Below are positions 16,901 through 60,900 of a stretch of DNA of 64,000 nt, piece by piece. The DNA is from Bispira polyomma. Taxonomy: Eukaryota. The translations under genes and the position numbers were made by a program. Location of the stretch: contig OZ287755.1 of assembly GCA_965649765.1 (NCBI GenBank), forward strand, positions 29,326,001-29,390,000, given 5' to 3'. Under the pieces are notes generated by a model. The model did not search any database, was not told the origin of the DNA, and saw only the letters and a list, made by a program, of their open reading frames with translations. The stretch's first letter is position 1. Each line of letters starts with the position of its first letter.

Positions 16901-18556
16901 TGAACGTGGATACAAGCAAAACTGTCCTTCCTATGTGATATGACCATATTAGGAAAACTGACCGTTAAATAAATACATGAATTACATGGCAATGAACGGC
17001 CCAGTCTCACAAGATAGCTGGTGGTAAATAATGGTCAAAATAGTATGCTTATGTCCAGAGATTTTGACCTTTATTTGGAGGTAAAGATGAGGTGGTAGTG
17101 ATATGTTGGATGTTGGAAAATCTGATGCTAGTTTGGAGAAATTTTATTTACAGATAATTTTTGTACATCTATACAAAAGTTTTAAAATATATGATTTTTA
17201 AAACTTTAAAAAGCCATACGGCTTACTTGTAAGGCATAAAAAACCATTAAAAATAAACCAGTGTAACAAGCGACAAACCTTGTAACATTAAGGTAGTCAA
17301 CAAATAATCCCACAATATACGCAGGTTCTAACACATGTAATTCTAATATAGTTCACATAAAATATAAACTAGTGTAATAAAGTCATCACATAATATATAA
17401 TCCCACAGTATACGCGGGTTCTAACAACTGTAAACCTAGTATAGTTCACACTTTAAACCTGTTCATCTCAAAAGAAGTTACCATAGGTGTTTAAACATGA
17501 TCCAATTAATAAATCAATATATATACTTAAATCATGCAATCCAAACAAGGATGGATTCAAAATCGGAACCTGCGGCACCAACACGCCTAGCAATGGCCAA
17601 TCCTTCCCCACAGAGCTCCGAATTCCCTTGGCAGCCACGCCAAGGGCAAGTATATGGAGGAAAGGATCGCACCACTACACGGTTCCAACGTCGACTCCGC
17701 CCAAGTTCGAATTGCATGACTTTTCAAGAAGCAAATAATATCACTCAACACAGGGAGGGTGGGTGAGGTTAATTTTTAAAACTTGTATACCCTTTGGCTG
17801 TGGGTTTAATAATGAAGAGAAAGAGAAATAGACGGGGCATGTGTATTGAACCCTAACGACCCTGAATGCATATTGGTCGCTAGGAAGGTTAGAGTAAAGT
17901 GGCTAATTTGTGCGACTGACAAGACATGCCTTGAGGCAGTGACTCCGAATTTTAAACATGCAAGATAAGTGCCAGGTAGGCATTCACACTGTCCACAATC
18001 TATAGGGCTGTTTACTCCCGATGTGAAAACCTTAGTGATCTGGAGAAAACGTCCAACATCTGTGCAGAAACTGGTTGCATCAGTAAGAACGGGGGGCAGA
18101 GCCGGAAATTTTAAACATGTTTAAAACTTCCCTGGGTCGTCGGCTCTGAAAGCACATCTTGAGAGAACTGAAAAAAGTGTGTGATTAGGGCTTAAACGGT
18201 GTATAAACGGGACTTAAACTGCTCAGAACTTGTGTAAATGGGGCTTAAACTACTTAATCTGAAGCAATCTGAAGCAAACGTTACATTAACGTGTGATGAA
18301 CTGCTTAGATCTGGTCTGGTCTGGACATAAATTTGTCATAAACTGGTGAGATCTCTTCACAACCGGCCATATCCTAGACATAAACTAGACTAAACTTGGA
18401 CAATGTGACTGCCACATAGCGAAGAAAATTGCAAAATAAACGTGAAAGTGGGAGGCTCCCATAATAAACGTATTATGTTTTAGCATGAATACTAATAACC
18501 ATTATCTACCTTATGTATAATCACATGCCATCTGACTGTGCTTTTCCCAATAGGGT

Positions 18557-18783
18557 ATGTCGGGGCGGTCGCCCAGCCCCCAGCGCCGGAACCGGCCGTT
18601 TGAAATGCAGACGCCGGGCAAGAAACTGGTAGAAGAGATCCATGATGAGTTCCTGGTGTGTAAGATCTGCCTGGAAGGTTACAAAAACCCGAAGTGTCTC
18701 AACTGTCTGCACACATTCTGTGAGGAGTGCATAGAGAACCATGTGATGTCAGAGAGTACATACAAGAAGTACAGTGATTACAG
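18557..18783 (+). CDS. TRIM/RBCC E3 ubiquitin ligase, coding exon 1 (most of the RING finger)
   Basis: Encodes CKIC...CLHTFCEEC (C3HC4 RING, completed by CPLC in exon 2). Preceded by acceptor cttttcccaatag (ends 18553), so a 5'UTR exon lies upstream. Donor AG|GTAAGT at 18783, phase 2. Confidence 0.95.
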
Positions 18784-19658
18784 GTAAGTAGTTAGAGCTG
18801 ATGAGCAAGTGGTTTAAATTTCTGCAGTTATAAAATGTTAAGTTACATATAAAGCATTGATCATTTGCAAAATTAAATCAAGTGAAAATACAAGGAACAA
18901 AGGATGTGGCATAGAATAATTTTAATCAAAAATAAATTTAATGATCGATGGTATTTGTGGGAAAATATTTTCAACTCAGGAATCTGAGATGACATTGCTA
19001 TATAATTATTATGTTTCCTCGTTTATCTTTTAGATTCTAATTTTTGTTTTTGGTTTGTACAAGCAAAATACAATATTTCCTTTTGTAATGTATGCCGTAT
19101 ATTACTGTCAAAAAGTTTTATAATGGAAAAGTACCATTACTCTGTCAAAGAATTGTATATACTGTGGAGGGAAAAAAATATTAAGCTGCAAACTGTGGCT
19201 TAGTAGGTACCACACTTGCTAAGGAAACACATTCGTATCAATGACAGTTGTGTATTTAAGCGTACCACATTTAACCAGAATCCTTTTCTGGAATTACATA
19301 TTAATCTTGAAGGGTTCACCAAACAACCAATTTTAAATTGTATAATATAATTGAATATTCCACTCATTAAAAAAATATTGGTAATCGGTACTCTGAAGCT
19401 GAAAATGATTGTATCTTGCTGTCATATGTTATCGCAGAAAATTGTTATCAGGTGTAATTCTTATATTTTGTAAATCCCAGTGTGATAATGGTTACAAAGG
19501 AATACTAAAAGTAATAATTGTAATCTGTACTTACAAACAAAATTAAAATAGGGCTTATATATTTATGTGTTTCATGTGTTTCTTTGAATTAGTATTTAAA
19601 AAAAACACTGCTTCATTAAAACCACATGTAAGCTGGTGATGTGTTATTTTGTTTACAG

Positions 19659-20666
19659 AGACTTCACCTGTCCTCTGTGTCGAAAGAGAACAACCCTTCC
19701 AATAGGAGGAGTAAAGAAACTTCCAGACAACTTCCTAGTGTCCAGTCTGACAGAAGTGGTTTCTAGGCAAAAACCCTCTAAATACCCATTTTGCGACATA
19801 TGTAAGATGATCAACAAGAAGCACAAAGATGCGGCTTCAAAGTGTTTGGACTGTGCCAAGCTCCTCTGTTCACAATGTGTCCAGATGCATAAAGAAACCA
19901 AGGTCACGGCCAACCACTCCATCTTCGACATTGAGATTGAGAAGGACATAGAATGCAAGGAGCATCAGGATGAAGTGGTCAGATTCTACTGCGAGGTCTG
20001 CGAGACCTGTATCTGTGTTCTGTGTACCTTTAATGAACACAAAGACCACGAGATCACACAGTTCAAGGATGCAGTGGCCAAGTACAAAGAGAACATACAG
20101 CATCTTCTGAAGAAGTGTGAAGGCAAGATCATGGTCTTTGATTCTCATCTGGAGTCCCTGAACAAGTGTGAGGAGAATATCAAAGAAGCCGAGCAAAGGA
20201 TCCACGATACTGCTATACAGTACATTGCCGATATCCGCAACCGGGAGAAGCAACTCGTTGAAGAGATCCAGAATATCTACGGGGCTGAACTGATGAGGCA
20301 GATAGAGAACAAGAAAGAGCTGGGATTACAGATAGATGGACTGCGTAGTACATGCAGTCTCACAGAGGTGATACTCAAGGGCAAGGACATTGAACTCTTG
20401 TTGCTAAAAAAGGATGTCCAAGAAAAGCTGACCGTGCTGAATGGTGTGGAGATCAAAACTCCCCCTCAAACTGTGACAAAGAGGGTGTCTTTCGAAAAAG
20501 GACAGATTGATCTAGGATTCATCCACGACAAAGACAGACCATTGCTCACCAAAATGAGGCTAAATAAATCAGCAACCAACCAGGAGGAACAACATTTCGT
20601 GGAAAGTAAAGAAAGAAGTACCCAAACTGACCAACAGCAGAGGTATAGGAAAAATACCAAAACAAG
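19659..20666 (+). CDS. TRIM exon 2 (RING end, B-box1, B-box2, coiled coil)
   Basis: Acceptor ttttgtttacag, phase 2 matching exon 1 (AG+A = Arg, then DFTCPLCR). B-box1 CDIC...CLDC...LCSQC...H...H; B-box2 CKEH...YCEVC...CVLC...H..H; helical K/E/L-rich coiled coil. Donor AG|GTAAGA at 20666; an alternative same-phase donor AG|GTATAG at 20642. Confidence 0.93.
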
Positions 20667-21495
20667 GTAAGAGTTACAACTAATCTGCCACACAAATTCA
20701 CAGCCAATATCTTATCAGCCCATTTGATACTTATTATTACCTCTGCCATGAAGGTTTATGGTTTCTACTTGTTTATTTGGTCCCATAATACCACAAAATA
20801 CTACCGAGCCTGTATATATGAAGTTTTGTGGAGGGATCACGCATGGGAAAAGAGAAAATCTTTCAATTTTAGAAATCCAGGATTGTTGTTCTTTTCATTT
20901 TTTGGCCCACTTTAAAAGAGATATCTGCTCTATTAAGCCTAGGCTTCCTTTTAGGCAACCCCAACATCCACCGATTTATTTGAAATGAGCCGAGCCAACA
21001 TCAGCCGATGTAGCACTTGCTTATGTCCGATATCTACTAAACATTTTAATATAATTTTTTTTTAAATTCTTATTTTCGTTGGAAAATCGGGCACACCTCC
21101 CCACTTTTTGCTCCCTGACCAATAAATTATGATGGGCAAAAAGACATCGCCTAACGTCTGATATAATCTGAAGGAAATATGTTGACAGGAAGCACATCCT
21201 AATATTAAATAATGACTGATAAAATCGGCCAACATTGAAAAATATACCTAGGCTAAGTTTCTTTCAAGTTTAAAGAATAATTATCTTAGTTCATCTACTA
21301 AATAATATAACTTTTATATGATTTTGTTCTCAAGCTTATCAACAATTTATATTAATTAATTAATAAATGATCAAATAATTTTAATTGCTACTAATGTATA
21401 CCTTCAGCTGCACCACAGCCACAGACATTTTTTTTTAAATATACTAAAATTGTCAGTCAGTAACATTATTCTTGATTTTGTAATCGTGTTGCCAG

Positions 21496-21691
21496 GAACC
21501 ATGAGGACAGTGAGACAGACAGTGACCTTGACACCGAAGACAGTGAGGAAAGTGATGATGAAGAAGACAGGCCTGAACTGGTGGACTCTGGTGTTCAGAC
21601 AGAACAGAAAGAGACCACTGAATCCAGTTCAGGAAGTGATGCCGACGAGAGCGGTCCCGAGATGACCGACGATAGCACCATGACTGATAAG
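21496..21691 (+). CDS. TRIM exon 3 (acidic disordered segment)
   Basis: Acceptor gtgttgccag, phase 2. Open frame NHEDSETDSDLDTEDSEESDDEEDRPELVDSGVQTEQKETTESSSGSDADESGPEMTDDSTMTDK. Donor AAG|GTTAGG, phase 0. The ORF track shows another frame here. Confidence 0.85.
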
Positions 21692-24293
21692 GTTAGGAAG
21701 CCAAGAATGGGCTACTCTTTGAGGGTGCTTCATAGTTAGTAAAGGTGAGGTTCTGGTGAGGGGACTTAACATGTCTAGCTGCCTTGGTGCTGCTGTTGCT
21801 ACTACTAATAGATCCAACCTCCCTTTTCTGGCTTTCCTCTCTCTTTCATGGTCCTTTCTCCTTGTACATACCTTAAGCTCGCAGCCTAAGCTTGGACATA
21901 AATACATCTAAGTCTACAAGATAACAAGACGAAAAGGGTATTATTATCATGCAAAAGGTAAATACTCATTTTACTTCATTATTGGTCTATTTGAACTGAC
22001 CTTTAGCAGCTTTTAATATCAAATGATATGTATGCCACTACTGCAATAAGCATCCTTCTAAAGTTATTGTAATGATACGACAAATAAGTTCAGTCTTCAG
22101 TACGTAATTTAGACAAATGCCAATTCTGATATTACATTTTTAGGAGAGTAACACACATTTACAAACCAGAATTCCTTTATTTTTTACATTGTTTAAAGAT
22201 TCATACAAATATACATTGTTTGCCACACTATATGCCATAAAGAACACTTTCAATAAAGTAAAAATATAGTCTCATAGATGACTCATATATGTCAGAGAAA
22301 TCTATCCTATCCATATAGAGAAAAAGTGTAGTATGTAGTTGTAGTATCTTTCTAACAAGGCTCAGACAATATGCCTCTCTTAATTACTCATTGGTATGTC
22401 ACATTCATAGTGCTCTTTCCTTAAAATTTTAGGAAATTGTTTGAGTAAAACTTGCACAAAAATAAGTTAAAAACCCAGATATATGAGTGACGGTATATCT
22501 TACAAAGCTCTGGAATACACTTAGTCACTTCTAAATTACCCTCTTTGCTTGTAGTTTTCCAACTGTTACCTCCATGTAGTGGTAGATTAGATAAATGTCA
22601 ATTTGTTAAAACATACAGCAAAACCAAACCCATTCCAATACCACATTGTAACAGTGACAAAAAGATCAACATATTCAGGAGTTGCAGTTTATCAAACTTT
22701 ATTTCATATCATTAAACAAAATAACTAGATGAAATATGCTGTGAGTATAAGTTCCCAAAAATGTTGTTCTGTTTTAGTTTATTGATTGATTGACTCGTAT
22801 GTTTCTATAGCAGAACCATGTCTCAGCAAGCAAAGATTACATATGAGATTGTTATTTTGTAGGCTGGACATTTTAATTTAGTACAGCCTGATTTTGTGTT
22901 AAATGATTCCTTATCACAAGACTTAAATAGGTGTTGTTATTACTGCCCTAAATTCACGGAATTAATGTCTACCCAGGTAGATAAATCCGTTCTGCATCAT
23001 ACCATATTGATGTATAACAATCACATTGACTGACATTGTCAACGACAATGTTGCATAGGATTCAAATTATCAACATACATATTTGATGTTAGATTATAAT
23101 AGCTTTCTTATTAGAAGAGACAAGTCCCGACATGTCCCGAAATTGCCATTTCTTTTTGCTGTGGCCAGTTTAAAACCTACCCAAACCCCACCATGCCTCA
23201 CCTATACAAACATTGTGTGATTAACTAGTTAGTGGTTTACATTAATGAAGTAGTACATGCAGAGGAACCTCTATTAAATTGAATATTAATCACAGTTTCA
23301 TATTTGAGTACATGTTTAGCTTTATTGATATTATTATCTATTTCGGAAAGCATGTTTTTCTGTGTATTTTATAGAATGTTCATTAAAGCTACAAATGATT
23401 TTCTGTGTAGGTTTAAATATGTTATATCAATAGTTCATTTGTAAATACTTGATTAACAAGGGTTCACTTGGGTGAACAGTGTTTCAACCATCTGACGAAT
23501 TTGACTCATAAACAGTGTGTACATTATAAATTAGCCCACACCTTTGGCGAAGAACAAAGAAAAATACTTGAATGGTGGTATGAAATTGTCTATACTTATT
23601 GTTTAAGTAATAAGTGGAATTAAATGAAGGAAATGTAGATTAAATACAACATTTCCAGTGATTGAACACAAAATCTTACTTTTCTGAATTGTCACTCCTC
23701 CTCTGTTGGGTTATTTATTGACAATAAAATATGATAAGCCTCTTTTCCCTTTGCAAATTCCACATGAATTTGGAACTTTCAATAATAATAATGACTTCAT
23801 TTCAATTAATTGAGGTTCTTTTGTTACAATTTGGCAGATTTTTATTACCTTTGCCCAAACTATGTAAAGTCTCCATTTGACACACAACTTATTACATATA
23901 CAAATTTGAACAACTAAATAATGTTGCATTTAAATTTACATGCAATTGTTCATAGAATAAACTTATATAAGTCATTTGTGCTGATATGCTGTTATATATT
24001 TATATATATGTGTATGGAATTCTGCATGTGAACCTTTTTCCTTTTAGTATTATTTGTTAATATTAATAAACTGATATTTAATATTGTTAAGTTTTAACTT
24101 TTTTGGTTAATTTTGTATATATTTTATCTTTATGATATAATCTCATCAGACAAATGATTTTGTTTCTTTTTTTTTGTTTTGTATGTTAATAATAAATTCT
24201 GCATGATATACATATTTACTGATTTAACATTCTACCGAAAAAAATAGTAACATGTTTAATATGGTCCCAATCTATGTTTTTATATACATACAG

Positions 24294-24596
24294 ATTGAAA
24301 CAGAGGAGAAAGCAGTTAACACCAGATCACGTAGTCTTCAAACTCTTCGCAGATCAGATGACACTGAGGAGACACTCGCTGCTAGGCGCCGCCGCCGTCG
24401 TGATCGAGCTCATACCACTTACATAGGCAACAATAACCAATCCTCCAATAGTGTGGATTACCCAGATTCTGATGAAAATGTCTCCAGCTACGACCGCCGT
24501 AAGGGGAGACCCCGATCTTTGTACCACCACAGTGTGGATGAGAATGAAGTCTTTTACGATGCCGATACGAGGCAGGCCTCGGGGCAGCGGGTTTAG
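24294..24596 (+). CDS. TRIM exon 4, frame 0 (short isoform C-terminus; about 577 aa in total)
   Basis: Acceptor tttttatatacatacag, phase 0. Reads IETEEKAVNTRSRSLQT...RRRRR...DENEVFYDADTRQASGQRV then TAG. Confidence 0.8.
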   Translation: METEEKAVNTRSRSLQTLRRSDDTEETLAARRRRRRDRAHTTYIGNNNQSSNSVDYPDSDENVSSYDRRKGRPRSLYHHSVDENEVFYDADTRQASGQRV

Positions 24597-27500
24597 CAGC
24601 GATAGGTTTGCACAGACAGATATATCCTCAGTTAGTAAGACTGCTCAGAACATGAGGCTGTCTTCTTCCAGTTGGTCGGAATTCTTCTTCTCTTCAGAAG
24701 AAGAGTATGACGAAGTACCTGAGGATGTCAATCATCACCACCATGATGATCAATCTGAAGTTTCAAGAGGGAAGGCAGGGAAGAAAGAGATATCAGTGGT
24801 GCAGCCTACACAAACATCTCCCCACCCACCTTCCCAGTCTGTGCAAACACCCAATAGTCCTGCCAGTAAAATGGATCCCATACCAAACCAGAAGGGACCC
24901 AAAAATAAAGATATAAACTCAAAGTTGGATGATTCAAACCAAGACATATGTTCCAAACCAGTTTTTAAATTGCAAGTAACACCTATTCCTAGTAAAGACA
25001 CTGTGCTAATAAAACCTCCAACGCCCAAATTGCAACCTGAAACTCAAATTTCAAATCAAAGTTCACAACAGGTTAAGCCAGAAATACATGTTTCACAAAA
25101 ACAAGAGGGCACAAAGCAGCCTGAAAAGCAACAACAGGTGACTAAACAACCTATACAGCAACAGAAGGGAATTATGCAACCTGAACAGCAACAGAAGGTA
25201 AATGTGCAACCTGTATCTCAACAGCAAGTACATAAGCCACCACCTATACAGCAACTGCAGAAACAGCAGGCCAGCAACCAACCTGTTCTGCAACAAGCAA
25301 CTAAGCAACCAGAACAACAGCTCGTAAACAACCAGTCATTACAGCAACAAAAATCACCTGAACAGCCTATTCAGCAACAGCATACCACTAAACAACTTGT
25401 ACAGCAACAACAGACAACTAAGAAGCCTATACAGCAACCACATGTTACTAAAGAGCCCATACAGCATCAGCAGGCCACTACACAACCTGTAAAGCAACAG
25501 CAGGTAACTGAACAGCAAAAACAGATAATTAAACAACCTGTACAGCAACAACAGGCTACCAACCAACTGGTACAGAAACCACAGGCAACTAAGCAATTTG
25601 TGGAGCAACAACAAGTCATTAATCAAGCAGTACAGCAGCCACAGACAACTAAGCAACCTCAACAACAACAACATGTAACTAAGCAAACTGAGCAACAACA
25701 CCAGGTAACTAAGCAACCTGTACAACAACAACAGTTAACTAAGCCACCTGTACAACAACAGGTAACTAAGCAATCTGTACAACAACACCAGGTAACTAAG
25801 CAACCTGTACAACAACAACAGGTAACTAAGCAACCTGTACAACAACAACAGCTAACTAAGCAGCCTGTACAACAACAACAGCTAACTAAGCAATCTGTAC
25901 AACAACAACAGACAACTAAGCAATCTGTACAACAACAGGTAACTAAGCATCCTCTACAACAACACCAGCAAGTAACTAAGCAAAATGTACAGCAACAACA
26001 GGTAACTAAGCAACCTGAACTACAACAACAGCAAGTAACTAAGCAATCTGTACAACAACAACAACAGGTAACTAAGCAACCTGTACAACAACAACAACAG
26101 GGAACTAAGCAACCTGTACAACAACAACAACAGGGAACTAAGCAACCTGTACAACAACAACAGCAGGCAACTAAGCAACCTGTAAAACAACAACAGGGAA
26201 CTAAGCAACCTGTACAACAACATATAACTATGCATCCTGTACAACAACAGCAGGTAACTAAGCAAAATGTACAGCAACAACAGGTAACTAAGCAACCTGT
26301 GCAACAACAACAGCAAGTAACTAAACAACCTGTACAACAACAGGTAACTAAGCAACCTGTACAAAAACAACAGGTAACTCAGCAGCCTGTAGAACAACAA
26401 CAGGTAACTAAGCAACCTGTACAACAACAACAGGTAACTAAACAACCTGTACAAAAACAACAGGTAACTAAGCAACCGGTACAACAACAACAGGTAACTA
26501 TGCAGCCTGTACAACAACAACAGACAACTAAACAACCTGTACAACAACAACAGACAACTAAACAACCTGTACAACAACAACAGGTAACTAAGCAACCTGT
26601 ACAACAACAACAGGTAACTAAGCAGCCTGTACAACAACAACAGCAGGCAACCAAACAAAATGTACAACAACAACAGATACTTAAACAGCCTGCACAAGAA
26701 CAACAGATAACTAAACCTGTACAACAACAATCTAGCAAACAGGAGGTGATAATAAGAAGTCAATATGTACAACAACCAGTAATCAACCAAGCTGTACACC
26801 AGCATCAAGGAACACAGCAACCTGTACCACAACAACAAACAAAGAATGTTGTACATGAGCAAAAGCCTGCCTGTAAAAGTCCAGAAACATTGACGTCAAG
26901 GGATACACCGCACCAGCAAAACAAACAGAACACCACATTGATGAAGGTCAATCTTTGTCCGCCAAATCATATGGCATTGGTTACTTGTAAAAATATTACA
27001 GCAGATTCGCCTTCACTAATAATTGCGGCCAATAGAAATTCTATTAACAGTATCAATGTTGAGAAATCAATTACACCACAACAAGAGGCATCTGTAAATT
27101 TGGTACAGTCAAGTCTGATGAATGAAGTTCAAGATAAGAGAAACAGCGACAGTCAGAAAGACAATTTGCCAAACCAATCACAAATGAAACTAACTACAGT
27201 TCCTGTGACATCAGCAAGGGGTTTATCTATGATCAGGCATATGTCTAAGTCAAGAGAAAATAATTCTACAAACAAAGACAAGCCAATTGGGTCAAAGGTG
27301 ACAAACTTCGGGAGAAGTGTTCCCGATATGGGTAGATGTTTTAAACCAAAGCCAGTTCCACAAGCATCCACTGAAGATGCTCCCAGCAAGAAGGAATCTG
27401 AGATACGGCGCAAGTCAGTTTCATCAAATGCTCCAGACTGGCAGAAGTCTAGATATTTTGATGTTGAAGAGATAGAGAGGATCAAATCTAAAGCTCTGTT

Positions 27501-27744
27501 GAGGAACGAACAAAACAAAGAGCTGCCAAAGTATGTGAAGGTCGCCAGGTCAGACACCAGTGAAGTTAAGAATGAGGTGGAACAGCCAGAGGCTTCTGGT
27601 AGAGTACAAACGTCTCATCCTTCACCCTCACTCTCACGTGGCTCTGCGACTGGATCAACCGATTCCAAAAGTGGCCTTGAGAAAGGTAAGAGGAAAAAAG
27701 CAGATTCTAAAAGTAAAGGTAAAGACGAGTGTGTAACAATGTAA
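24451..27744 (+). CDS. Long Q-rich repeat ORF with C-terminal polybasic CaaX; probable extension of the TRIM protein
   Basis: 1097 codons without a stop in AT-rich DNA (frame open from 24427; the listed start is GTG, so not a likely initiator). Repeat length changes are multiples of 3. Non-repeat flanks are also open. Ends KGKRKKADSKSKGKDECVTM-stop. Confidence 0.8.
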   Translation: MWITQILMKMSPATTAVRGDPDLCTTTVWMRMKSFTMPIRGRPRGSGFSSDRFAQTDISSVSKTAQNMRLSSSSWSEFFFSSEEEYDEVPEDVNHHHHDDQSEVSRGKAGKKEISVVQPTQTSPHPPSQSVQTPNSPASKMDPIPNQKGPKNKDINSKLDDSNQDICSKPVFKLQVTPIPSKDTVLIKPPTPKLQPETQISNQSSQQVKPEIHVSQKQEGTKQPEKQQQVTKQPIQQQKGIMQPEQQQKVNVQPVSQQQVHKPPPIQQLQKQQASNQPVLQQATKQPEQQLVNNQSLQQQKSPEQPIQQQHTTKQLVQQQQTTKKPIQQPHVTKEPIQHQQATTQPVKQQQVTEQQKQIIKQPVQQQQATNQLVQKPQATKQFVEQQQVINQAVQQPQTTKQPQQQQHVTKQTEQQHQVTKQPVQQQQLTKPPVQQQVTKQSVQQHQVTKQPVQQQQVTKQPVQQQQLTKQPVQQQQLTKQSVQQQQTTKQSVQQQVTKHPLQQHQQVTKQNVQQQQVTKQPELQQQQVTKQSVQQQQQVTKQPVQQQQQGTKQPVQQQQQGTKQPVQQQQQATKQPVKQQQGTKQPVQQHITMHPVQQQQVTKQNVQQQQVTKQPVQQQQQVTKQPVQQQVTKQPVQKQQVTQQPVEQQQVTKQPVQQQQVTKQPVQKQQVTKQPVQQQQVTMQPVQQQQTTKQPVQQQQTTKQPVQQQQVTKQPVQQQQVTKQPVQQQQQATKQNVQQQQILKQPAQEQQITKPVQQQSSKQEVIIRSQYVQQPVINQAVHQHQGTQQPVPQQQTKNVVHEQKPACKSPETLTSRDTPHQQNKQNTTLMKVNLCPPNHMALVTCKNITADSPSLIIAANRNSINSINVEKSITPQQEASVNLVQSSLMNEVQDKRNSDSQKDNLPNQSQMKLTTVPVTSARGLSMIRHMSKSRENNSTNKDKPIGSKVTNFGRSVPDMGRCFKPKPVPQASTEDAPSKKESEIRRKSVSSNAPDWQKSRYFDVEEIERIKSKALLRNEQNKELPKYVKVARSDTSEVKNEVEQPEASGRVQTSHPSPSLSRGSATGSTDSKSGLEKGKRKKADSKSKGKDECVTM
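25110..26850 (+). repeat. Coding minisatellite, unit about 30 nt (ACTAAGCAACCTGTACAACAACAACAGGTA = TKQPVQQQQV)
   Basis: Dozens of tandem 27-33 nt units; most homogeneous at about 25670-26730 and more diverged at the edges. Confidence 0.95.
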
Positions 27745-29509
27745 AGCCAAATATTGCCAGTCTTAGAAACAATTCTGCATGACACACACACAATCTGCAT
27801 GATACTCAGCCTTGCCTTGGAGACTATTCTTATTATTATCCTTGCATATTTTGCCCACATTTTTATGTTCTTTTATTTTTCTTTCATTTCAGGGGGATAT
27901 ATAGTTGGCAATGCTTAGTTGTTGTTGCTTTGAAGACAGTAATATGTTCTGTTGGTGCTTCTTGTATCTGCCCTGATGGTGACGTCATATGGTTATAATA
28001 ATGACTTTCTTCCACAAGATTGTGGTCAATGCTTCTTAGATATTTCTGGAAATATCAGAAACAAACAAACATGATTTATATAACATGATATTTATTGTAT
28101 ATTGCATATCCCATAGTGTTACACTAACAGAAATTGTTCTGGATACTTAAGATTAGTCAAATATAAGTGGTCTAGTTTATATTTCAATTTACAAAAAAAT
28201 AATTGTGTTCTTTACATTTCAATTTACCAAGAACGGTGTTGAGTTGTTTAAATTTCAATTTACCAAAAAAGGTGGTGTCATATCAAACGTCTGATAGTTG
28301 AACTATTTCAATATTTGCAAGTTCTATAATAGTTATTTATACAAGGACATCTGCCCTGCATTATTGCTGTATGTCAAATTAACAGTTATTTGTATACGAT
28401 ATGCTTTAAGTTATTTTATATGTGTTATAATTATTATTTTTTTTACACAGTAATGCCTATATTTATATGTGTAATTTAAAACTGGGATGTTTTAAGCATT
28501 GAAGTAATATGTTTAGGTTGAATTACTGAGTTGTAATTCTGAAATCTTGTGTGTTATAGTTTCATTAGTCATTAGTCTTATAAGATAAGAATCTCTCTAC
28601 TTCGAATATGTTATTGAAATGTATGTAGTTTTTTTGATAAAACTCTGGTGTGTTAATTGGAACGAAAATAGAATTTTCAAAATTAAGAGATAAATAAATC
28701 AAATTAAATAGTCTGTGGTGGCTTCTCCTCACTACTGCAGTAAATTGTATCTTGCCAGTAGGCTTCGGCGAGTAAAATAAAGACAGTTTCACTCTATTAA
28801 TTCCCTTTGCTGGTCTCTCAAAGGGAATGATAATGTAAATAAATATTTGTTTAAGCTTTTTTTTATTGCATCATTTTTTGTCAGGTTAATGGTAACTATT
28901 AACTTTGGCAACAAAATGAAAAAGCGTATCATTGATGATCAAAATGTCAATACTAATACTAAATACTAAAATATATTTGTTGCAATAAGTTTGAATTTTA
29001 ATAAAATTATTTATTGTAATTGATGCTGTCGTTTTCACAGATGATTGAGAATGATGCAGTTTACTGAATCTAATATAAAAGCTACAGGGCTTTCACAATA
29101 CATAAAAAGGAGAATTTTTGATCAACACTTCCATATAACAAGACTTACAGTGATTTGACTACAGTTATGCATAAATTGTCGCCGATATTTTTGGAATAGC
29201 CAAATCAAATAGGCATTTTTATTTAAAGATAGTTACAACATTAACAAAATTAACAATTTTTGGCAGGATCCCTATTTATTCAGGAGTAAGCTTAGCACTG
29301 ACCTCTAATTAAACTGATTCTGGTAGTCAAACATTAAAAGTAGGAACTCGATGTGATAAGATTTACAATACAAGTAAGTGTTTAAGAAATCTACTGATGG
29401 AGTGTAGATAACCACTACATCCATGTTGTTACTAAATATTGACAGTGTGCATATTTCAAAACCACCTGATATAATGTCTACATCAAATACCGCCAGGTTT
29501 AGGACATTA

Positions 29510-32939: not shown

Positions 32940-35900
32940 TGTAGGTTACAACAAATGACAAGCAAGTCCACTTTAGGGGACTGCTATCTCAGTCCACGTA
33001 CCTCATTCAAAAATCTATTACACTCACCTAAACAATTATTAGGTATAGCTATCCTCAAGGCATTGTCTCCTGGCTACAGCTGGACCAATGAGATTGCTTA
33101 ATTTATTAGCTATTTCCCGGCTTTTTGGCTACACCTCCATATTGATCTCAAAATTTAACAAGCAACAACAAAAATTTTGTAACTTGGATGTTATTGAACA
33201 TTTGCATTTGTTTTTGTAAATGATTTCAAATTTATACATTTTATTTGCGGCTACATTATAGGTATCAAATTATTTGTGTGTGAACTGAAACAATGGGAAA
33301 AGCTAAAAAGACCCAGCTAGCTAGTCTGAATTATTACCTCAGAGAGAACTATCTCAAGGTAAGGCTAACCAGAGGGTCAAGTCAGGTAGATTTAACTCCA
33401 CAGATAAAGCCAAGGTTGATCCCAGATTTTGTTGGCCAAACGAAAGCTGTCTAGCAACTAATATCACCACCTCATTCCGCAAATGCCCAGCCTATGACAA
33501 CCTCTTGCTTCCGCAGTGGGCAGCAGGCAAGATTTCAAACGTGCTTCTAGTATCAGACAACGCAGCAATAAGAAACATGATGAACCAAATTGTTTCTGCG
33601 TTTCGGGATGCTTCATCGCTTCCCTGGCCGGTAGTGAGGATGGCGTGGGCATCTAACATGCACGAGATAGAAGCAGGTCGGTTGACGTGGAAAAATTACA
33701 CTCAGTGGGCGTTGAACTGAATGAGCGCTTCACAACGGACTGTGGTTAAGAATCACTCTCCGAATGCAACCAACGTCGCAAAACAAAGGACAATATGTAG
33801 GCTTTTCAACAACAGTAAATGTACTCATAAATCTGATCATGGAAATTACAAACCTAACTGTTGGTATTGTGCTAACGCTCTAGGCAAAGATTCAAGTCAC
33901 CATGAGTTTAAATGCTTTAAACCAAATTCCAGCAAGCAGTCTGACAGTCGAAATGTTAAAAGTAGCTAGTAAATTATTCAACAACCAGATAAAGGTCAAG
34001 GAACATTAATAAATACTGTGAATACCAGAGTAAGTGAGAACAATAACTTAAGTAGGAATAGCGTAAATAGTGTGAATAAGTATAATGATATCAATGTATC
34101 AAAAAATGAGATTACAGTAATGTCAAATTTTAATTGTGAAACTAATGTTATTCCAAATGTATTACATAAAAATGTTTCAGAAAACATGCTTGGTGATGTT
34201 ACTGCTGTTAAGAGACAGCAGCGAACACACCCAGATAACAGGGTCTAGGAGAAGGACAATATGGTTATAGGGGAGTATAGCTTGGCTAACTATGATAGAC
34301 CTAAAAATTATAAAATCAAAAATCATACAGGCCATATTTAAGATGGCCACCATGAGTTTGGGGAACAAAGGTAAAAATTAGTGTTACTAATTGGTGTTTT
34401 TCTGATTTTAATAGCAGAGAAAACCTTCCCATTATTTATATTGGCGGCCCGGCTAATTTTAAAGGTTTTTTATTCCAGTCTTATTGACAGCTTCACAGGC
34501 ATCAAAAGCTATACTCCTATTGATTTGAAACCTTATGGTTTGTTGACTATTATTGACACTTTCAACATAATGGTTGAAAAATTGGACAAAGTGGCTTATG
34601 TAAAATTTAACGAAATCAAACAACTATCATATGAACAGCAAAGTTAAGCCAGTAATGATCTTTACTAATATCAAACAGATATTAAATGTCTTAAGAATAA
34701 TGGCAAAAATTATACTTAGTACTTAGAGAATATAATTGATGAACTAATTAATTGTTGTAAAGAAAAAACCACAGGTTCTAACAAAAATTGTATATATACA
34801 AAAGAAAAGGCTGACCAGACTGGATGTAGAGACAATGACACTACTAAAGGTATAGTGAATTATTGTGATAAAAAATATACTCCCCCTGTGTCGTCCAAAC
34901 ACTTCTTCTAAATGTTCTACATGTTAAAGGGTCAGTGAACCTGTGAACAGGAATGTCACTGACAAAACTGATTTAAGTAAAACTGTTGGGTTCTTAGCAC
35001 TTTCAGAAACAAAATTTGACTTCCAAGGCCCTGATAGGCCAACAATATATATTAATACAGTAGAGAAAATAATTGAAATTACTGAAATAATAAAACAAAC
35101 TGGAGTTTCCAATTACAAGTAATCCAGAATACCAATAAGTTCTGGCGTAAACACATGCATGGCAAACCATGCTACAGGAATATCCTGACAAACTTTTACT
35201 TCAGTACACCAAGTTCGGCTTTCCTTTATGTTTGAGTACACCTGCTAAGTTAAACAATGCCGTTGTGAAAAATCGTTACTCTGCTTTGCAGTATCCCTAT
35301 GATGTTGGTGAATATCTCAAGAAAGAAACTGAATTAGGAGTCATGTTAGGTCCAGTTAAGGAGGTCAAAACCTCAGATTACCACTGTTCTCCACTTCTTA
35401 CAAGACCCAAAGATATCCACAAACGTCATGTAATCCTCAACTTGTCACACCCTTATAGTAACTGCTTAATGATAACATCGACAGAAACAAATTTGATAGT
35501 CTAGCGTTCATATTAAAGTTTCCAACAATTGATGATATCACACAAGCCTTACATGACACTACGAATGCTACTTTATTCCAAATTGACATGGCCAGGACTT
35601 TGAAAAACTTAAGAGTAGACCCTGTAGATGCAATAAAGGTAGGAATTTCCTGGCAAGGCGACTATTACCTGGGCCCGGTGATCGTGTTCGAGTTGGTACA
35701 TGGCATTGCTGCTTTTCAGCATTGCATGGACGCAATAACGATGCACATGTGTAAACTGAGCTTCAACGTCTTTAGGTACATTGACGATTAAGTCTGCGAT
35801 TAAGTATCAAGCAAAATGAAAAATTACCTGCAGTGGTTCACAAAATTCTTAGAAAAATATAATGCCGACAAACTACATTTGGAGGGGTGACTTACAGGAC

Positions 35901-37490
35901 TCAGGGGAGTTTGGAACCAGGAGGTGTATGTGACTCCCTTTCATGACCTATTCAACTGAAATCTAACAATAGTCTCGAAATGCTCAACATAATCATAGCA
36001 TTACGCGTATGGGCTGAGAAGTGGAGACTTAGTAGTTTAATGTTCAACTGTGATAACATGGCGGTGGTACTGGTTGTCAAGTTACAGAAATAGAGATAAT
36101 TTCCTGGTGTTATGTTTAAGGAACATCTGGCTGTTGACAGCTAATTATGACATTACTTTGAAAATTGGACATATACCTGGTAAGAAAAATGCCATTGGGA
36201 ATGCTCTGTCTAGACTGTATTCAGATAAAGCCTCAGACCAAGATCTTATAAACAAGATAGTATTTTCAAATGTACCAATGAAATACTTCAATTTGGATTT
36301 GTCTATATAATTTCAGGTCCCACCAACATTAGCCAAACACTGATATCATCTGCTTGAACTAGAATTGACTTATCACTGACACCAAAGACAACTACAGCTT
36401 ACAACTCACATTTCAAAACTTTTCTAGCTTTCCTTAAGTTTACAGGTATTGCCACTGTCAATGTACATGCAGTTGTAGCTTTCTTGGAATACCTGGATCA
36501 GAACCAGCTATCCCCATGGGGCTGTCAGCAATTACTTAGCAGCATTAAGATTCGTAGCTTCAAAATTAAGCTGGGATTTGTCCCATTTTACACATAATGC
36601 CGTGTCATTATTAAGAGGTCTTACACACAATTCTACATTTAGACCAAAACCAAAAGGTACCTTTGCAATTGAACAACTAATATTTATATCTAAAGGCATG
36701 TGATATCCTTGATACCCCTGTAGTTTTCAGGGCAGGTTTTCTACTTGCCTTCTTTTGTTTCTTAAGGTTATCTAACATAGCACCGCATTTTAGATCAGCA
36801 TTTGATTCTACCAGGCACTTTCTTAGGCAAGATGTTATTTTTGGCCACCCTGGAGCTCACATCATTTTAAAATGGGCCACAAATCTGAAAAATAGAACTG
36901 ACACCCAAAAATCCCAATGCTAGAAAATCCAGATATATGTCCTGTATTAGCCCTCAAGACACTTTTACTATTTAAACAACTCTCTGATACTGCAGCACTG
37001 TTTGCAGCTAAAAACCCAGCATATCATACAATCATTGACTCACACGTAAGGACAGCTTTACAAACAATTCTGCAGCACATTGGCATCCAATATAGTTTAC
37101 ATAGGTTTCATGCCTTCAAAAGATCAGAGACCTGCGTCATCTGTATTCAATATAAATGTCTTCCTTTAAAATATCATGGCTCATACATTATGGAAATCAT
37201 CTGCAGTCTGGACATATTTACAAAATATTTCCCAGGCTGCTTCAGCGGTACCTCTAGCCTTTGCCTCTGCTATCTTACATTCCTCTTAGGTTTGGCTTGG
37301 GGATTTAAAAATTGCGATGTTTAAACAATTTTTAAACATTTTACTTTATTACCTGTATTATAATGCCTCAAGGTGAAATCTTTTATTACCTCCCTTTTTC
37401 CATCAAATCATACTTTATTCAACATACACAATTTAACCTTGCTTATACACCTTTGACCTTTACTTCACTCATCTTAAACGGGGACTGAAC
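32940..37490 (+). mobile_element. Decayed tyrosine-recombinase retrotransposon 1 (DIRS order, Ngaro-like)
   Basis: gag remnants (VKSGR...WPNE; Cys/His-rich 33721-33969); RT (CSPLLTRPK, RHVILNLSHP, YIDD near 35780); RNase H (CDNMAVV, HIPGKKNAIGNALSR); YR (FFCFLRLSN, FHAFKRS). Many stops and frameshifts. Boundaries taken from the empty site in the duplicate at about 40460. Confidence 0.88.
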
Positions 37491-54953: not shown

Positions 54954-57900
54954 CGTTTGGGGTTTGTAGAAGGAAGAGCTTAGAATCAAAACGTGGCATT
55001 GCTGGAGTTCAATTTATTTGTTTTAAAAAGTTTTTACCATTTTACTTAAACTACTCCAGTGATGCCTCTGATTAGTGCTAAAAAAGTGGTGAATTGTTTA
55101 CGGTGAAAAAAAACAACATGAAAGACCCTCGGGTCGGAATTGTACAGCCATGCTAACTGAGGTTGCTCAGCCAGTTGTCGTCCCGAGTACCAGGACCCAG
55201 ATGGATTCCACTCCTGATGGACAGGCAGTGCTAGCTATATTAACACACATGCAATCAATAAACATCATGATGGAGAAAATCGACAGGCGGGTACAAGCAA
55301 CGGATGAGGCAGTGTTGAAGAATAAAGCAACAGAACAGGCTGGTAACATTGTATCAAATACCATTTTAAACTCTAGCTCTGAAAACTCCAACGAAGGCCA
55401 CACGGGTAGTAATAACACTATTGTTCCTGGGGTCAAGTTCCTAAAACATAATGTCAAAATTCAAACGCAAGTGGAGCAAAGACTCAAGGAATTACAAAAT
55501 CTCAATGAGGGTCCAACCCAAGGTAGAGTGAAGTCCCAAGGAGGGGGTGGCTCTAATAATCTGGTCAAAAAAGTGGTCACGGGGCCTCAAAATTATGTCC
55601 TATCAGGAAGTGCCAAAACTAGACCCAGTTCTCATGAACTTACTGTAGCTCAGTGGGTGTGTGGGTTTACCCGTATTATCCAGGACGAAAAAAGTGTCGA
55701 AGTCAGAGGGGCTATGTTAGACCACATGGGTAGCCTTATGGAGGACGCACAGGATTTTTCCTGGGAAGCGGCTAAGGCTTGTCATGCAGTCTTATTAACA
55801 AATATGGAAATGGACAAATTGGGGTGGTTAAAAATCGGAAAAGTTGACTGAATACGTAAAGCTCATGCTCAATGCCACGTGTCCAGTAGTAGTGTCTCTT
55901 CTAACAATGGCACATGTAGTACAATAAGTACCAAGAAAGGTAATACAGAATCAAATGCTGTTACATGTCGTTTCTTCCAAGAAAGAAATTGTAAATTCTC
56001 GACACAAAATGGGGGAAAAATTTTATAAACACATGTGAGACGTGTGAGGGCAGACATAGAACGAGTCTATGCACAAAAAAGGGGCAAAAAAACTAGGTGG
56101 CCACTACAACAATGCAGTGGTTCAATGAGTAAATAGCCAAAATGTTGTAAGTAGAATGGTGTTCAATTCCAGTTTTAAGGATTTCCATCTATTTAACAAA
56201 AATGTCGTAAATAAAATGTGTACATATATGAAGGTCACCAAAGGTGATGTCACTTATAGCAAGGTGGTAAAAAGTAAAAAAGAGGGAAACGTATTGAACC
56301 TTATTGTGCACAGGTGGACAAATTCCTGCCAGAAGGTGTCGCAGAGAACAATTGTAAATAAAAGTAAGGTAAATGTAGAGCTCTCGAGAGGGACACAATA
56401 ACAAAAATGTGCACAAATTAAAGAGAGAGATGGTAGAATGGAAAACACAATGGACAAACAAAGAACTGTTCCCAATGAGGCCAAAGGGTATGTAGAACAA
56501 TTCCCAGCAGTACTGCTGGAAAATAGGTTTTCTGCCTTTATGAAGTATGTACTGAGCTGTGAGGAGGTGTGAATAACACCAACCCCCAAACTATTGTGAA
56601 AGTCAAAAGTAGAAACAATAAGTCGAGAGAAGGATGTGTGAATAACACTAACCCCAGGTGTGAAACAAAAAAATCAAGCGGCTGTGTGAATAGGGCCAAC
56701 CATAATGAGTGAGCAAAAACAAAGTCAATTCGCGTATGGCTTCACACCTTTGTCTAGTTTAGGTAATAAAATCACAGATAGAAACAAGAACAAATCTGAA
56801 GTGAATATCTTGAAAGCCCATACTAAAATCGTGCAGGTGGAAGGCACAACTATGTTGGTTTACAAATTCCAGTGCAGTGTCAACTAAATGAAGAAAGGTG
56901 GAAACAGTATTTACACGACTATTGGAATTGGCCTCTGCTCATTAAATACAGTTTCCCCCTTGACTTTAACCGGAAGGAAACAGTTGAATCAAATGGTGAT
57001 AATCATAAATCCGTTGACGAGTTCCCTAGACAATTAGACTTGTATTTAAACGAAGAATATAAATTGGATGCCATATTGGGTCCCTTTAAACAAAATCTAA
57101 TTGAAAACCTCTCTTTCACCTCCCTAATGACCAGGGATAAATCTAGCTCAGCTAACCGACGTGTAATTGTGGATTTAAGTTGGCCCAAAGGGGCTTCCGT
57201 CAATGTGGGGGTTTGCCCCTCGTCGTACCTAGGAACAGACTTTCTATTGTCATATTCATCTATTGACAGTCTTACAAAGGAGCTTAATAAACTTGGAAAG
57301 GGTGAGTCGCGCCTTTCGCCACATTCCTATTGATCTGGGGGACATTGATTTGTTAGCGTTAAAATGGAACTCCTTTTATATAGACAAATCTTTACCGTTC
57401 GGATGCCAGAATGGGTCCACAATTTTTCAGCGTCTTTTGGACACAGTTTCCTTTATAATGAAATCTGAGGGACACAGCATCCACAACTATATTGATGATC
57501 TTCTTTGCGGCTCATTACCAAATAAATCAATCAAACATAAGACCGATTACAAGAACTCCTATCCGAACTTGGACTCACTGTTAGTTAAAAGACAATAGTG
57601 GCTCCAGCAACACAGGTTGTTTGCTCAGGCATAATAATTGATACAGTAGAAAGCACTACATGAATTCCTAGTGAAAAACTGATGGAAATAAAAAAAACTA
57701 TGCAAATTCTGGGAATTAAAAACTCATTGTACTAAGCGTGAATTGCAATCCTTTCTAGGTCTTCTACTATACGTTGCAAAGTGTATCAAATATGCTATAG
57801 TTTTTCTAAACAGAATGTTAGAATTGCTTAGAGACAATCATAGTAAATAAAGATTCAAAATTACTTTGCAGTAGCCTTAAAAATATGGGCAAAAATCTGG

Positions 57901-60900
57901 CAAGGTAAAAAAATTCGGGTCAAGTGTGATAATCAGGCTGTGGTGAGTGTTCTACAGAGTGGGCGAACTCGTGATCCCACACTTGCCATGTACACTAGAA
58001 ATATATACATGCTGGCTAGTCAAAATGATATAGAGCTAAATGTAGTACACATATTGGGGGCAAAGAACCAAATTGCAGATCTACTTTCCAGATGGACAGA
58101 AACCAATAGTAATCATGAATTACTTTTTCAGTTAACTGGTCCAGTGCAATGGGTGCAAACACACCCAACCATGCTAAAAGTAAATGACAATATTTAAAAT
58201 ATTTCTTGTAATGTTATGTTTCAGGCAAATTTGCCCTTGAGGTCTGGATCAATAGGAAGGCTCTTGAGAGACTGGAAGCTGTCTTAGCTCCTTCAACTGC
58301 AAAGGCTTATGACAGAATGTACAGATTGTTCCTGGCCTTTGGAATCTTTATGTCCTGGCCAGCATCCAAGGTGAACGTCTTTCAGTTACTAGCATATTTA
58401 TAGTTATTAAATTACAATTCTGTCTCAGTCTCCCATGTGGCTAACCATTTGTCTGCCATTAAGGCCAAGTGCAAGCCAAGCTAAAATCTGTTTGATATAC
58501 CTTAGTTAAAACAATTAATGAAAAAATGTGATGCTGCCTATATGGGGCAAATTTATTAAGTTTTTTCAGTTTCTTATGTCTAATCTATGTTCGCATGCAG
58601 TACATGGGGTTTTCCCCTGAAACAGCTAGCAAGAGCCGACGTTATATTCAAACCAGGCTATGTTGTAATAATGGAAAAGTGGTCCAAGACTTTTAAAAAC
58701 AATGATGTAGTAAAACTATTACCTATCCCGGCACTACTTCACTCAAAAATTTGCCCCATCAAGGCTATTAAAAACGTCATCAGTATCAGGCCAGTGGGAA
58801 AAGAACCTCCCACTTTTTCAATATAAGCTAAACCAAACTTGGATATCTATGACTGACAGAAGAGTCTGTCGTCACTGAATAAAACATTTTGCAAATGCTT
58901 GGCTTTGACAAAAGCGAATTGACGTTCCACGATTTTCAACATTCAGGTACAACGTTTGCATTCAACAGTAATGTGCCACTTGGACATCGGACTACGTCTG
59001 AAGCTACATTACAGACTCTGCCAATGCACGCTGTAATGTAGTCGACTGCTTCCGAAATGTTCTACTCACTACATAACTTGTGGTGTTGGTGGCCTGACAA
59101 TTCAAACGTGTCATGTCAGTACTAAATCACTAGATGATAAAAATATAATTGATACAAAGTACAGTAAATACAACTGATTACTGTCTTTTTGGCCATATAG
59201 TCACCCTATAAAACAGAGTACATAATTTATCATCATGCTGAACTTAAGAACAGCTAAATCAACATCAAAATTCATTTCGTCACCTTTGTTTTAATTTCTC
59301 ATAAACTTAAACTTAAGTTAGGGTAACCTCATCTTTAAACTTTAAGGTTACCTTTGTTTAAGCTCAAGCTATGGTGACATCATTTTCAATCCATATAGTT
59401 CACCTTTGTTTCTAATTCTTAAACTTAAACTTCAATTTATGGTGACCTTAAAAATCTTAAGGGTTACCTTAGGGACACCTTAAGGTGTATGAACGCCTTG
59501 CTTGAGGTGACCTTTTGCCCCAAAATATTACAACTGTACATAGTGAAATATTAGATATAACCTTGTCATAATAAATATTTAACCGCATTGCTATGTGTTT
59601 CTGTGTTACATTAATTGACTTCTAAAACTGCCCGAGGCACTGAAAACCCCATTACATAACGAGACGGGCCAAGGTGTTAAACATACAAGAGACACGGGTC
59701 ATCAGGTATCAGATTCACTAGTCACAAACCTTGAACATCCTAACACACGCTTTATCAATGCGATATGTCCATCCATCTAAGAACCAATCAGATCGCTAGC
59801 ACCACAGCAAAGTTCCCACTTTTTAGACTTTCATATTGCATCCCTAGATAGAAGCAACAACGAGTGCAACAGTTATGGAATTTATAAAGAACTTAAATAT
59901 AAAATGCGTGCAGAACGTCTGCTAGATGGAAACCTAGATACATATAACTTAATCAGCTGAAAATGTAAGGACATTTTCAGGTGTAAGAAAATGCACATAT
60001 TTGACTGTCATAGTATATAGGTAATTGATGGGCTTGCTCTAGGTACTTGGAGTCCAGACACTGTGGGAAGAGTTCTGGGTCCTATAGAGGGGGTCTTTTA
60101 ACTAACATTAAGAGTGCCAGAGTCGAATAGGAGCTCCGGGAGCCAGAACCCTCTGCAAGGCTTATGCTAGGCGATTAGGTGCCTCAGGTGTTTAACATGA
60201 CTCTTATTCAACATAAGATTCTTCTTTACTAATGCACAGCATTCTTTCTTATTGGAAAATCATGTTTATGGGCAGATTAGTGTGGCTTTTGGCCAATAAG
60301 GCGTTTCAAAAGTCACCAGGTTTATGCCTCAGTTATGGGCAAGCGACTTTCCCACCCCCGGTCAAGCTCTCCATCTCACTCTCAGACTGTGCCACAGAAT
60401 TAGCAGAGATTTTAGAGCACCAGGAGCAGCAGATGTAACTCCTCCAGGCCCTTCGCAATGACAGGGAGAGGCTCAGACACCCTCTTCTGCTTCTTCTTCG
60501 ACCTCACTACCAAAGACTTTTGAGGTTTCTTGAAATTCTAATCAAATCTTAAAATTCTAATCAAATTAAATCTCAAATATCAAAAAAGCCTAATAATACT
60601 ACAATTATCTTTCAATAATTCTCAAAGTCTAAAAAATAAAATCCTGTATTATATCTAAAATGTAGATGTTGACTCCTCAATGACACTGACTGAACTGAAT
60701 GAATTTATCAATTCAAAGTACAGCAGCTTTTACAGTAGAATCTGACATGCCAAACACATGCTACGATCTTGACACACAAGCAACACACATACTAGGTACG
60801 TATAGCACTCTCACGAGACACACAATAAATGGCGACACTAATAAAATATTTGACCATGATGTTTCTATAAGGATCACAATACACGCCCTCAGAAATTCTA

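Follow-up and report, generated by a model that had tools for sequence, protein, structure and literature searches.

A minority of ribosomes may shift into the +1 frame at GUU UAG C, the sequence that closes the reading frame of a TRIM gene in Bispira polyomma, and would thereby make a 1626-aa, likely farnesylated TRIM protein; from the sequence, we put the probability of this reading at about one half. The gene lies in a stretch of 64,000 nucleotides (contig OZ287755.1, positions 29,326,001 to 29,390,000 of the forward strand), which we call the window and whose own positions are used throughout. The features on which the argument turns are as follows.

18557 to 18783, forward strand: coding exon 1 of the TRIM gene, with the start codon and the first part of the RING (Pfam); its N-terminus matches the relative P0104 and a GT donor follows at 18784.
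19659 to 20666, forward strand: exon 2, with the end of the RING, B-box 1, B-box 2 and the coiled coil; donor in phase 2, with a second possible donor at 20643.
21496 to 21691, forward strand: exon 3, acidic and of low complexity; donor in phase 0, in-frame join, boundary common to P0104 and P0115.
24294 to 24596, forward strand: exon 4 in the zero frame, with a poly-Arg stretch, the FYDA motif and the stop TAG at 24594-24596.
24591 to 24597, forward strand: GTT TAG C, candidate +1 ribosomal frameshift site; a published motif, identical in the relatives L001 and L002.
24595 to 27744, forward strand: +1-frame extension of 1049 codons, rich in Gln, Val, Lys and Pro; its stop-to-stop ORF starts at 24427.
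25508 to 26730, forward strand: tandem array of 40.5 copies of a 30-base unit that encodes a 10-residue Gln-rich repeat; looser copies from 25361.
27682 to 27729, forward strand: basic patch of 16 residues, eight K/R and three D/E.
27730 to 27744, forward strand: CaaX box CVTM and stop TAA, from the translation; published prenylation data exist for CVTM.

Joined by its constitutive splices, the TRIM gene is read in the zero frame to 24594-24596 and gives a product of 577 aa. Pfam identified the RING in exon 1 (zf-C3HC4, E 4.9e-09; zf-RING_UBOX, E 1.3e-09) and the B-box in two stretches (zf-B_box, E 9.9e-14). The structural model (mean pLDDT 59.5) contains the coiled coil as an unbroken helix at residues 135-207 with a pLDDT of about 80-95, and comparison with solved structures matched TRIM28 RBCC chains to the RBCC region of the product, the nearest solved chains being the RING-B-box of TRIM3 and TRIM2, TRIM28, and the RING of TRIM56. 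From the intact RING we infer an E3 ligase activity. The family is spiralian and carries the automatic names TRIM45-like, TRIM56-like and TRIM2-like; the product shares with these spiralian proteins the RING, two B-boxes and coiled coil, but differs from the named TRIMs in that Pfam found no filamin, NHL or other C-terminal family in it, and the automatic names do not imply orthology to human TRIMs. Identity is 57-71% to mollusc, brachiopod, nemertean and annelid orthologues and 79-91% to two near relatives. The relatives P0106, P0107, P0108 and P0441 carry at their C-terminus an FYD motif followed by Gly-His-Arg-Val-stop, where the window has Gly-Gln-Arg-Val-stop; since both the motif and the end are shared, the zero-frame end at 24596 is real. 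The nearest named relative with that end is from the annelid Paralvinella palmiformis (KAK2169160.1).

Other ends were also observed in this gene and its family. P0105 terminates at the same intron read-through stop that exon 2 would reach, and reading on past the exon-3 donor of the window (21692-21739) adds 15 residues before a stop. P0104, P0112, P0115 and P0118 end in read-throughs of the exon-3 donor; a Trp-rich peptide at this place is common to P0112, P0115 and P0118 and may represent another alternative last exon in that group. Two AATAAA signals lie within the +1 ORF, at 24904 and 25008, and could give short mRNAs coding just the 577-aa form; the first AATAAA 3' of the CaaX stop is at 28693. 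Very high contig depth, the mark of interspersed repeats, was seen at 17500-18440 (5' of exon 1), 18890-19120 (intron 1) and 20990-21240 (intron 2). Elsewhere in the window, at 55093-58197 and 35151-37324, lie broken ORFs resembling those of retroelements: Pfam identified RVT_1 at 57233-57598 and RVT_3 at 57847-58197, whereas the ORFs at 35-37 kb are similar on inspection only and matched no Pfam family.

The earlier note on this DNA had described a basic terminus ending in CVTM-stop, and it is present as described: the forward-strand translation of 27682-27744 is KGKRKKADSKSKGKDECVTM-stop, the end of a stop-to-stop ORF of 1105 aa (24427-27744) that is the longest in the window. What had been overlooked is the frame of this ORF, which is +1 with respect to the TRIM zero frame. 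Since exon 4 is read in a different frame from the CaaX, a lipid-anchored TRIM is not the ordinary product, and because the main product ends at 24596 without a CaaX, a lipid anchor could be present only on a minor form made by recoding or alternative splicing. The lipid-anchored ligase of the earlier note is thus retained as a possibility for a minor form only.

As a background for chance, we took all 2065 stop-ended frames of at least 20 codons on both strands of the window. Cys stands at position -4 in 100 of them and a CaaX-type end in five, and a CaaX-type end preceded by at least six K/R within 16 residues was found once, in the CVTM ORF. The patch before CVTM, with a net charge of +5, is the most basic 16-mer in the entire 1049-aa extension. 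It had been likened to that of K-Ras4B, and a basic patch followed by a CaaX with X = Met is indeed common to both; the likeness is incomplete in the net charge, in a2 (Thr) and in the three acidic residues that break the patch, two of them adjoining the CaaX Cys, for which reason it would anchor less strongly than K-Ras4B does with its eight lysines (PMC6888304). That a CaaX with X = Met fits farnesyltransferase agrees with the published data on this tetrapeptide: CVTM belongs to a screen-derived positive prenylation set, and the prenylation predictors that the earlier note had called for return it as prenylated by three of four methods and as cleaved by two of two (PMC9231725). The same source estimates about 33% of all Cxxx sequences to be prenylatable and 12% to be cleaved, so that the motif alone is modest evidence. 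In a Ydj1 screen (PMC10320760), which gives yeast data on another protein, the enrichment of CVTM was 2.08 against 1.61 for the native CASQ, and its Ras-type heat-map score in that source is 8.0 against 19.4 for CVIM; CVTM has also been assayed with plant enzymes (PMC3017772). The tail of the 1626-aa form, if translated, would very likely be farnesylated.

The CaaX had been regarded as the best sign that the long ORF is translated; a better one is the open +1 frame together with its conservation in relatives. No stop occurs in the 183 non-repeat codons before the array or in the 337 after it (0 of 1000 dinucleotide shuffles for each part), and all 29 of the 29 anchor spacings in the array are multiples of three. 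On these sequence grounds the extension is very probably coding, as had been claimed. If the tail were instead an untranslated 3' UTR, with a repeat expanded in the window species and a CaaX present by chance or as a relic, then the missing homologues described below would be accounted for, CAA-based repeats would hold frame on their own, and either of the two internal AATAAA signals could end the mRNA early. We consider this very improbable in view of the 520 non-repeat codons without a stop, the same +1 frame open and conserved in relatives, and the position of the most basic 16-mer directly ahead of a good CaaX.

No Pfam family above cut-off and no folded domain was found in the extension, the last 147 aa of which are single-copy in the genome. 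No homologue of the tail was seen among the 1296 candidates listed of 440-1400 aa or among 442 retrieved proteins, the Atlas gave no usable match, and no relative was found in prokaryote genome contigs; a fused TRIM-tail protein of the annelid type with a CaaX was likewise absent from 76 matches of 624-2000 aa. The genome itself contains a paralogue (L081, G000:C1:74811744-74816780) in which a single frame of 1678 codons holds an RBCC and a long low-complexity tail. This is the architecture of the would-be frameshift product, and the paralogue ends without a CaaX.

The conservation of the +1 frame was seen in loci taken from metagenome contigs, 76 in number, among which L001 and L002 are the records of P0107- and P0108-type proteins. 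In both, a TRIM ORF without introns lies on one contig together with a +1 ORF, and the +1 frame is open from the stop to the contig end, for 175 codons in L001 (0 of 1000 shuffles) and 103 codons in L002 (3 of 1000); both contigs end inside this frame, before any tail end. The two +1 peptides are homologous (E 1e-10). Their alignment score of 144 compares with 36±6 for shuffled sequences (0 of 300) and with 31 and 35 in frames 0 and +2, and the likeness begins within four codons of the stop. Across three blocks picked for similarity, 12 codons differ synonymously, nine non-synonymously and 11 are identical. The extension of the window showed no significant similarity to either relative (shuffled sequences score as high in 17 of 300 cases for L001 and in 51 of 300 for L002; best E 4.2). 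The second ORF is thus open in all three sequences, with protein-level conservation detectable between L001 and L002 and undetectable with the window, and the path from the window to P0107 amounts to 0.96 changes per column. The window, L001 and L002 fall in a group of 10 rows with weak support (88/74, not starred); as members of one group, albeit a weakly supported one, they probably owe their shared motif to one old origin and not to three events.

The motif in question is GTT TAG C. It occurs at the stop in the window, L001 and L002, and GTT-stop-C is found in none of the 24 other loci, a count that kept every row, although three of them (L029, L041 and L014) probably do not represent genuine gene ends and seven are closely related. 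Synonymous sites are saturated at these distances: 30-32 of 92 four-fold sites are shared pairwise and 12 of 92 by all three sequences. The terminal Val is nevertheless the sole four-fold column of the 92 with T in all three, none of the 13 other invariant Val columns has GTT three times, and GTT makes up 12-23% of the Val codons in these genes. The +1 frame of the other 24 rows closes within 27 codons, except in L036 (58) and L055 (80); L055 has its 80 open codons without the motif, and its six sister rows close within 12. These figures concern a motif that was noticed post hoc and three sequences only. A shift at the stop would add 1049 residues, giving 1626 aa in total and the CVTM end.

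The two frames might instead be linked by read-through of the stop, by slippage of the polymerase or by an error of assembly, and a UAG with C after it is a weak stop. Read-through, however, cannot reach the tail, because the zero frame closes again two codons after the stop in the window, 10 in L001 and six in L002, and no long run of one base, on which a polymerase might slip, is present at 24591-24597. With regard to assembly, DNA-like contigs from three of three runs cover 26595-28500 with no other letters and no gaps, and the same runs cover the sequence from 21204 or 21621 to 25731, likewise with no differences and no gaps; the runs may be the source sample and are not independent. Since the contigs of all three are identical to the window over these spans, and the relatives share the same stop, faulty assembly accounts for neither the CaaX nor the change of frame at 24596, and we regard this group of explanations as scarcely credible. 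Inside the repeat array, at 26193-26360, the X1 and X2 contigs differ from the window by five letters and a 6-base insertion that keeps the frame, which may reflect an allele or a misplaced repeat unit.

Splicing could bring the TRIM exons into the +1 frame and give a CaaX isoform of 1435-1582 aa with no recoding. Such a route has parallels in the family: the CaaX isoforms of Mytilus, Patella and Octopus diverge from the shared sequence at the poly-Arg motif or shortly beyond it, and a mussel-like locus (L012) shows a splice donor (6252) and acceptor (6908) ahead of its CVVA exon. On paper, the window offers five in-frame splice routes, with candidate junctions into the +1 frame from exon 2 to 24597 or 24606, from exon 3 to 24427, and from 24499 to 24697, and the acceptors at +9 (7.5 bits), +101 (6.9) and +182 (7.8) score at the level of true sites (median 7.5). 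These stronger acceptors, however, have no counterpart in L001 or L002, and no strong acceptor is common to the three sequences. The only acceptor position that the three species share in phase with a constitutive donor is the stop itself, the TAG of which offers an AG at the same place and in the same phase, suits the phase-2 donor of exon 2 and is part of a shared, acceptor-like TTTAG. Against its use, the TAG scores -2.3, 1.1 and 1.3 where the median is 7.5 and just two of 43 true sites lie below 1.3, a C after TAG is seen at none of the 43 true acceptors, and G is the synonymous choice in five of the six Gly/Arg codons preceding the TAG. A candidate intron at 24499-24697 was marked down for its donor, which at -3.0 scores lower than any of the 43 true donors and is not present in L002. 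Our splice matrix is a weak judge, as its 43 introns come from one gene family and many stand at homologous places; given this weakness and the good acceptors private to the window, we consider splicing into the +1 frame unlikely, though by no means negligible.

The search for a CaaX in orthologues, proposed in the earlier note, found CaaX isoforms in three mollusc lineages; for the annelid relatives L001 and L002 the contigs stop short of the tail end. Strict CaaX ends were present in three of 26 orthologue clusters among the matches listed, where they account for four of seven Patella sequences (CVVA), seven of 15 from Mytilus (CVIA) and two of 15 from Octopus (CLLQ). The gastropod members of the paralogue, P0048 and P0329, terminate in CVIS and CTLS, and isoforms of scallops and Lineus have three-residue Cys-x-x ends; short CaX sequences have been reported as prenylated. 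Compared with distant TRIM ends, CaaX was not significantly enriched in the family (6 of 246 against 0 of 90 distinct ends, p 0.35; in a second count 4 of 154 against 2 of 182, p 0.42); compared with the window frames (5 of 2065) p is 6e-4, that background not being a proteome. Downstream CaaX-like ends in L003, L016, L019, L024, L027, L030 and L051 were treated as chance. Cys-rich ends that are not CaaX were observed in P0174 and P0238 (Lineus), in P0150, P0157, P0306, P0310 and P0312 (scallops), in P0203 and P0244 (Tubulanus) and in P0004 and P0008, the types in this set being Cys-Val-Ile, Cys-Met-Gln, a Cys cluster and a terminal Cys.

The +1 ORF could also have an ATG of its own, used from an internal promoter or by re-initiation, in which case it would encode a separate, disordered and farnesylated protein of about 1050-1090 aa and the TRIM would never be lipid-anchored. 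Upstream +1 ATGs lie at -125, -119, -59, -53 and -38 from the stop in the window, at -113, -98, -44 and -41 in L001 and at -50 in L002, and double coding near the stop could likewise fix GTT TAG C. These ATGs, however, stem from zero-frame Asp/Asn codons and have no one aligned place, and the FYDA codons differ freely at their third positions among the three sequences, which argues against double coding there. The presence of both ORFs on one intron-free contig in L001 and in L002 also speaks against a separate gene product, which would moreover have no folded domain. With a +1 ATG 38-53 bases 5' of the stop in all three, a separate start keeps some weight, but we rate it as improbable. The window contains both upstream +1 ATGs and in-frame splice routes as other possible means of access to the second ORF.

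The frameshift reading draws on a known pattern. GUU_stop_C is a conserved site in closteroviruses, where a slip from GUU to UUU has been proposed (PMC3542737, PMC4227794); the mechanism was itself proposed by comparing sequences (PMC3542737), and these viruses are placed among the inefficient shifts for which a stimulator seems unnecessary (PMC5009743). In closterovirus ORF1a/1b, as in the window, L001 and L002, the same seven bases stand at the ORF1 stop, ORF2 is in the +1 frame, and the site is conserved across divergent sequences. The TRIM differs in being a spliced nuclear animal gene, in having a disordered CaaX tail where the viruses have a polymerase, and in that its conservation is known from three sequences only. 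Among cellular genes the nearest comparison is ornithine decarboxylase antizyme, in which the +1 shift also occurs at the codon before the ORF1 stop and GUU is known in the P site, GUU-UGA being used in crab, fungal and algal antizymes (PMC1874602). Unlike antizyme, the three TRIM sequences have UAG and not UGA, and the zero-frame product is a full protein. They also differ in the lack of a detectable 3' stimulatory structure, as judged with a tool that leaves out pseudoknots: no stable RNA structure was found in the 80 bases 3' of the stop (z 0.09, 1.16 and 2.03) and no stimulatory fold in the 121 bases around it (z -0.78 to 0.61). UAG is reported to be nearly equal to UGA in mammalian antizyme, and annelid antizymes use UCC (PMC1874602).

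Two further systems resemble the proposed product more than the site. The +1 frameshift of vertebrate PLEKHM2 yields a minor transframe product, whose new C-terminus alters the behaviour of the protein; its site, UCC_UUU_CGG, lies within the ORF and the C-terminus is replaced, whereas the TRIM shift would take place at the stop and only extend the protein (PMC11451614). In ZAP-L and ZAP-S an isoform-specific CaaX moves the protein to membranes (PMC11414379). The restriction of the CaaX to one isoform would be the same here, with the difference that the choice of TRIM isoform would be translational.

In the mechanism that we propose for the frameshift, UAG-C would stand in the A site and the Val tRNA in the P site would slip from GUU to UUU, so that the next codon would be AGC at 24595 and translation would continue for 1049 codons to CVTM. 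The farnesyl group and the basic patch would hold the RING-B-box-coiled-coil head at the inner face of membranes through a long, disordered, Gln-rich tether, and pairing of the coiled coil with the abundant short form would carry the short form with it. Such pairing is usual for TRIMs and would add avidity. The rate of shifting would then determine the membrane-bound share of the ligase, and molluscs appear to gain the same end, a CaaX minor isoform, via splicing. Tentatively, we extend this to the lineage: in one lineage of annelids, a conserved closterovirus-type +1 frameshift at the TRIM stop may append a tether of 1000 residues tipped for farnesylation, with recoding setting the membrane-bound share, and in molluscs splicing may work the CaaX switch. 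In the annelid orthologues P0110, P0442 and P0122, a motif similar to that of the Gly-His-Arg-Val group is followed by a terminal His-Ile or His-Leu; NUU codons exist for Ile and Leu too, which makes these orthologues candidates for a related shift site. Their hydrophobic end could also be a PDZ-binding motif.

Conserved frameshifts in animal nuclear genes are listed as few, namely antizymes, retrovirus-derived genes, a predicted case in ASXL1, and PLEKHM2 (PMC11451614). In listings of the open-access literature, which was the part covered, we found neither a frameshifted TRIM nor a CaaX-bearing or prenylated one. The frameshift reading, if true, would make this gene a new cellular case of frameshifting and its long product a prenylated TRIM. 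GUU-stop-C in a cellular gene would then be an added case and would allow the closterovirus mechanism, which has been called "something of a mystery" (PMC3542737), to be approached outside viruses. Whatever the route by which they arise, CaaX minor isoforms recur in this TRIM family, in the Mytilus, Patella and Octopus orthologues and in two gastropod paralogues, and their recurrence suggests that some of the ligase is membrane-bound, in a pool overlooked by annotation.
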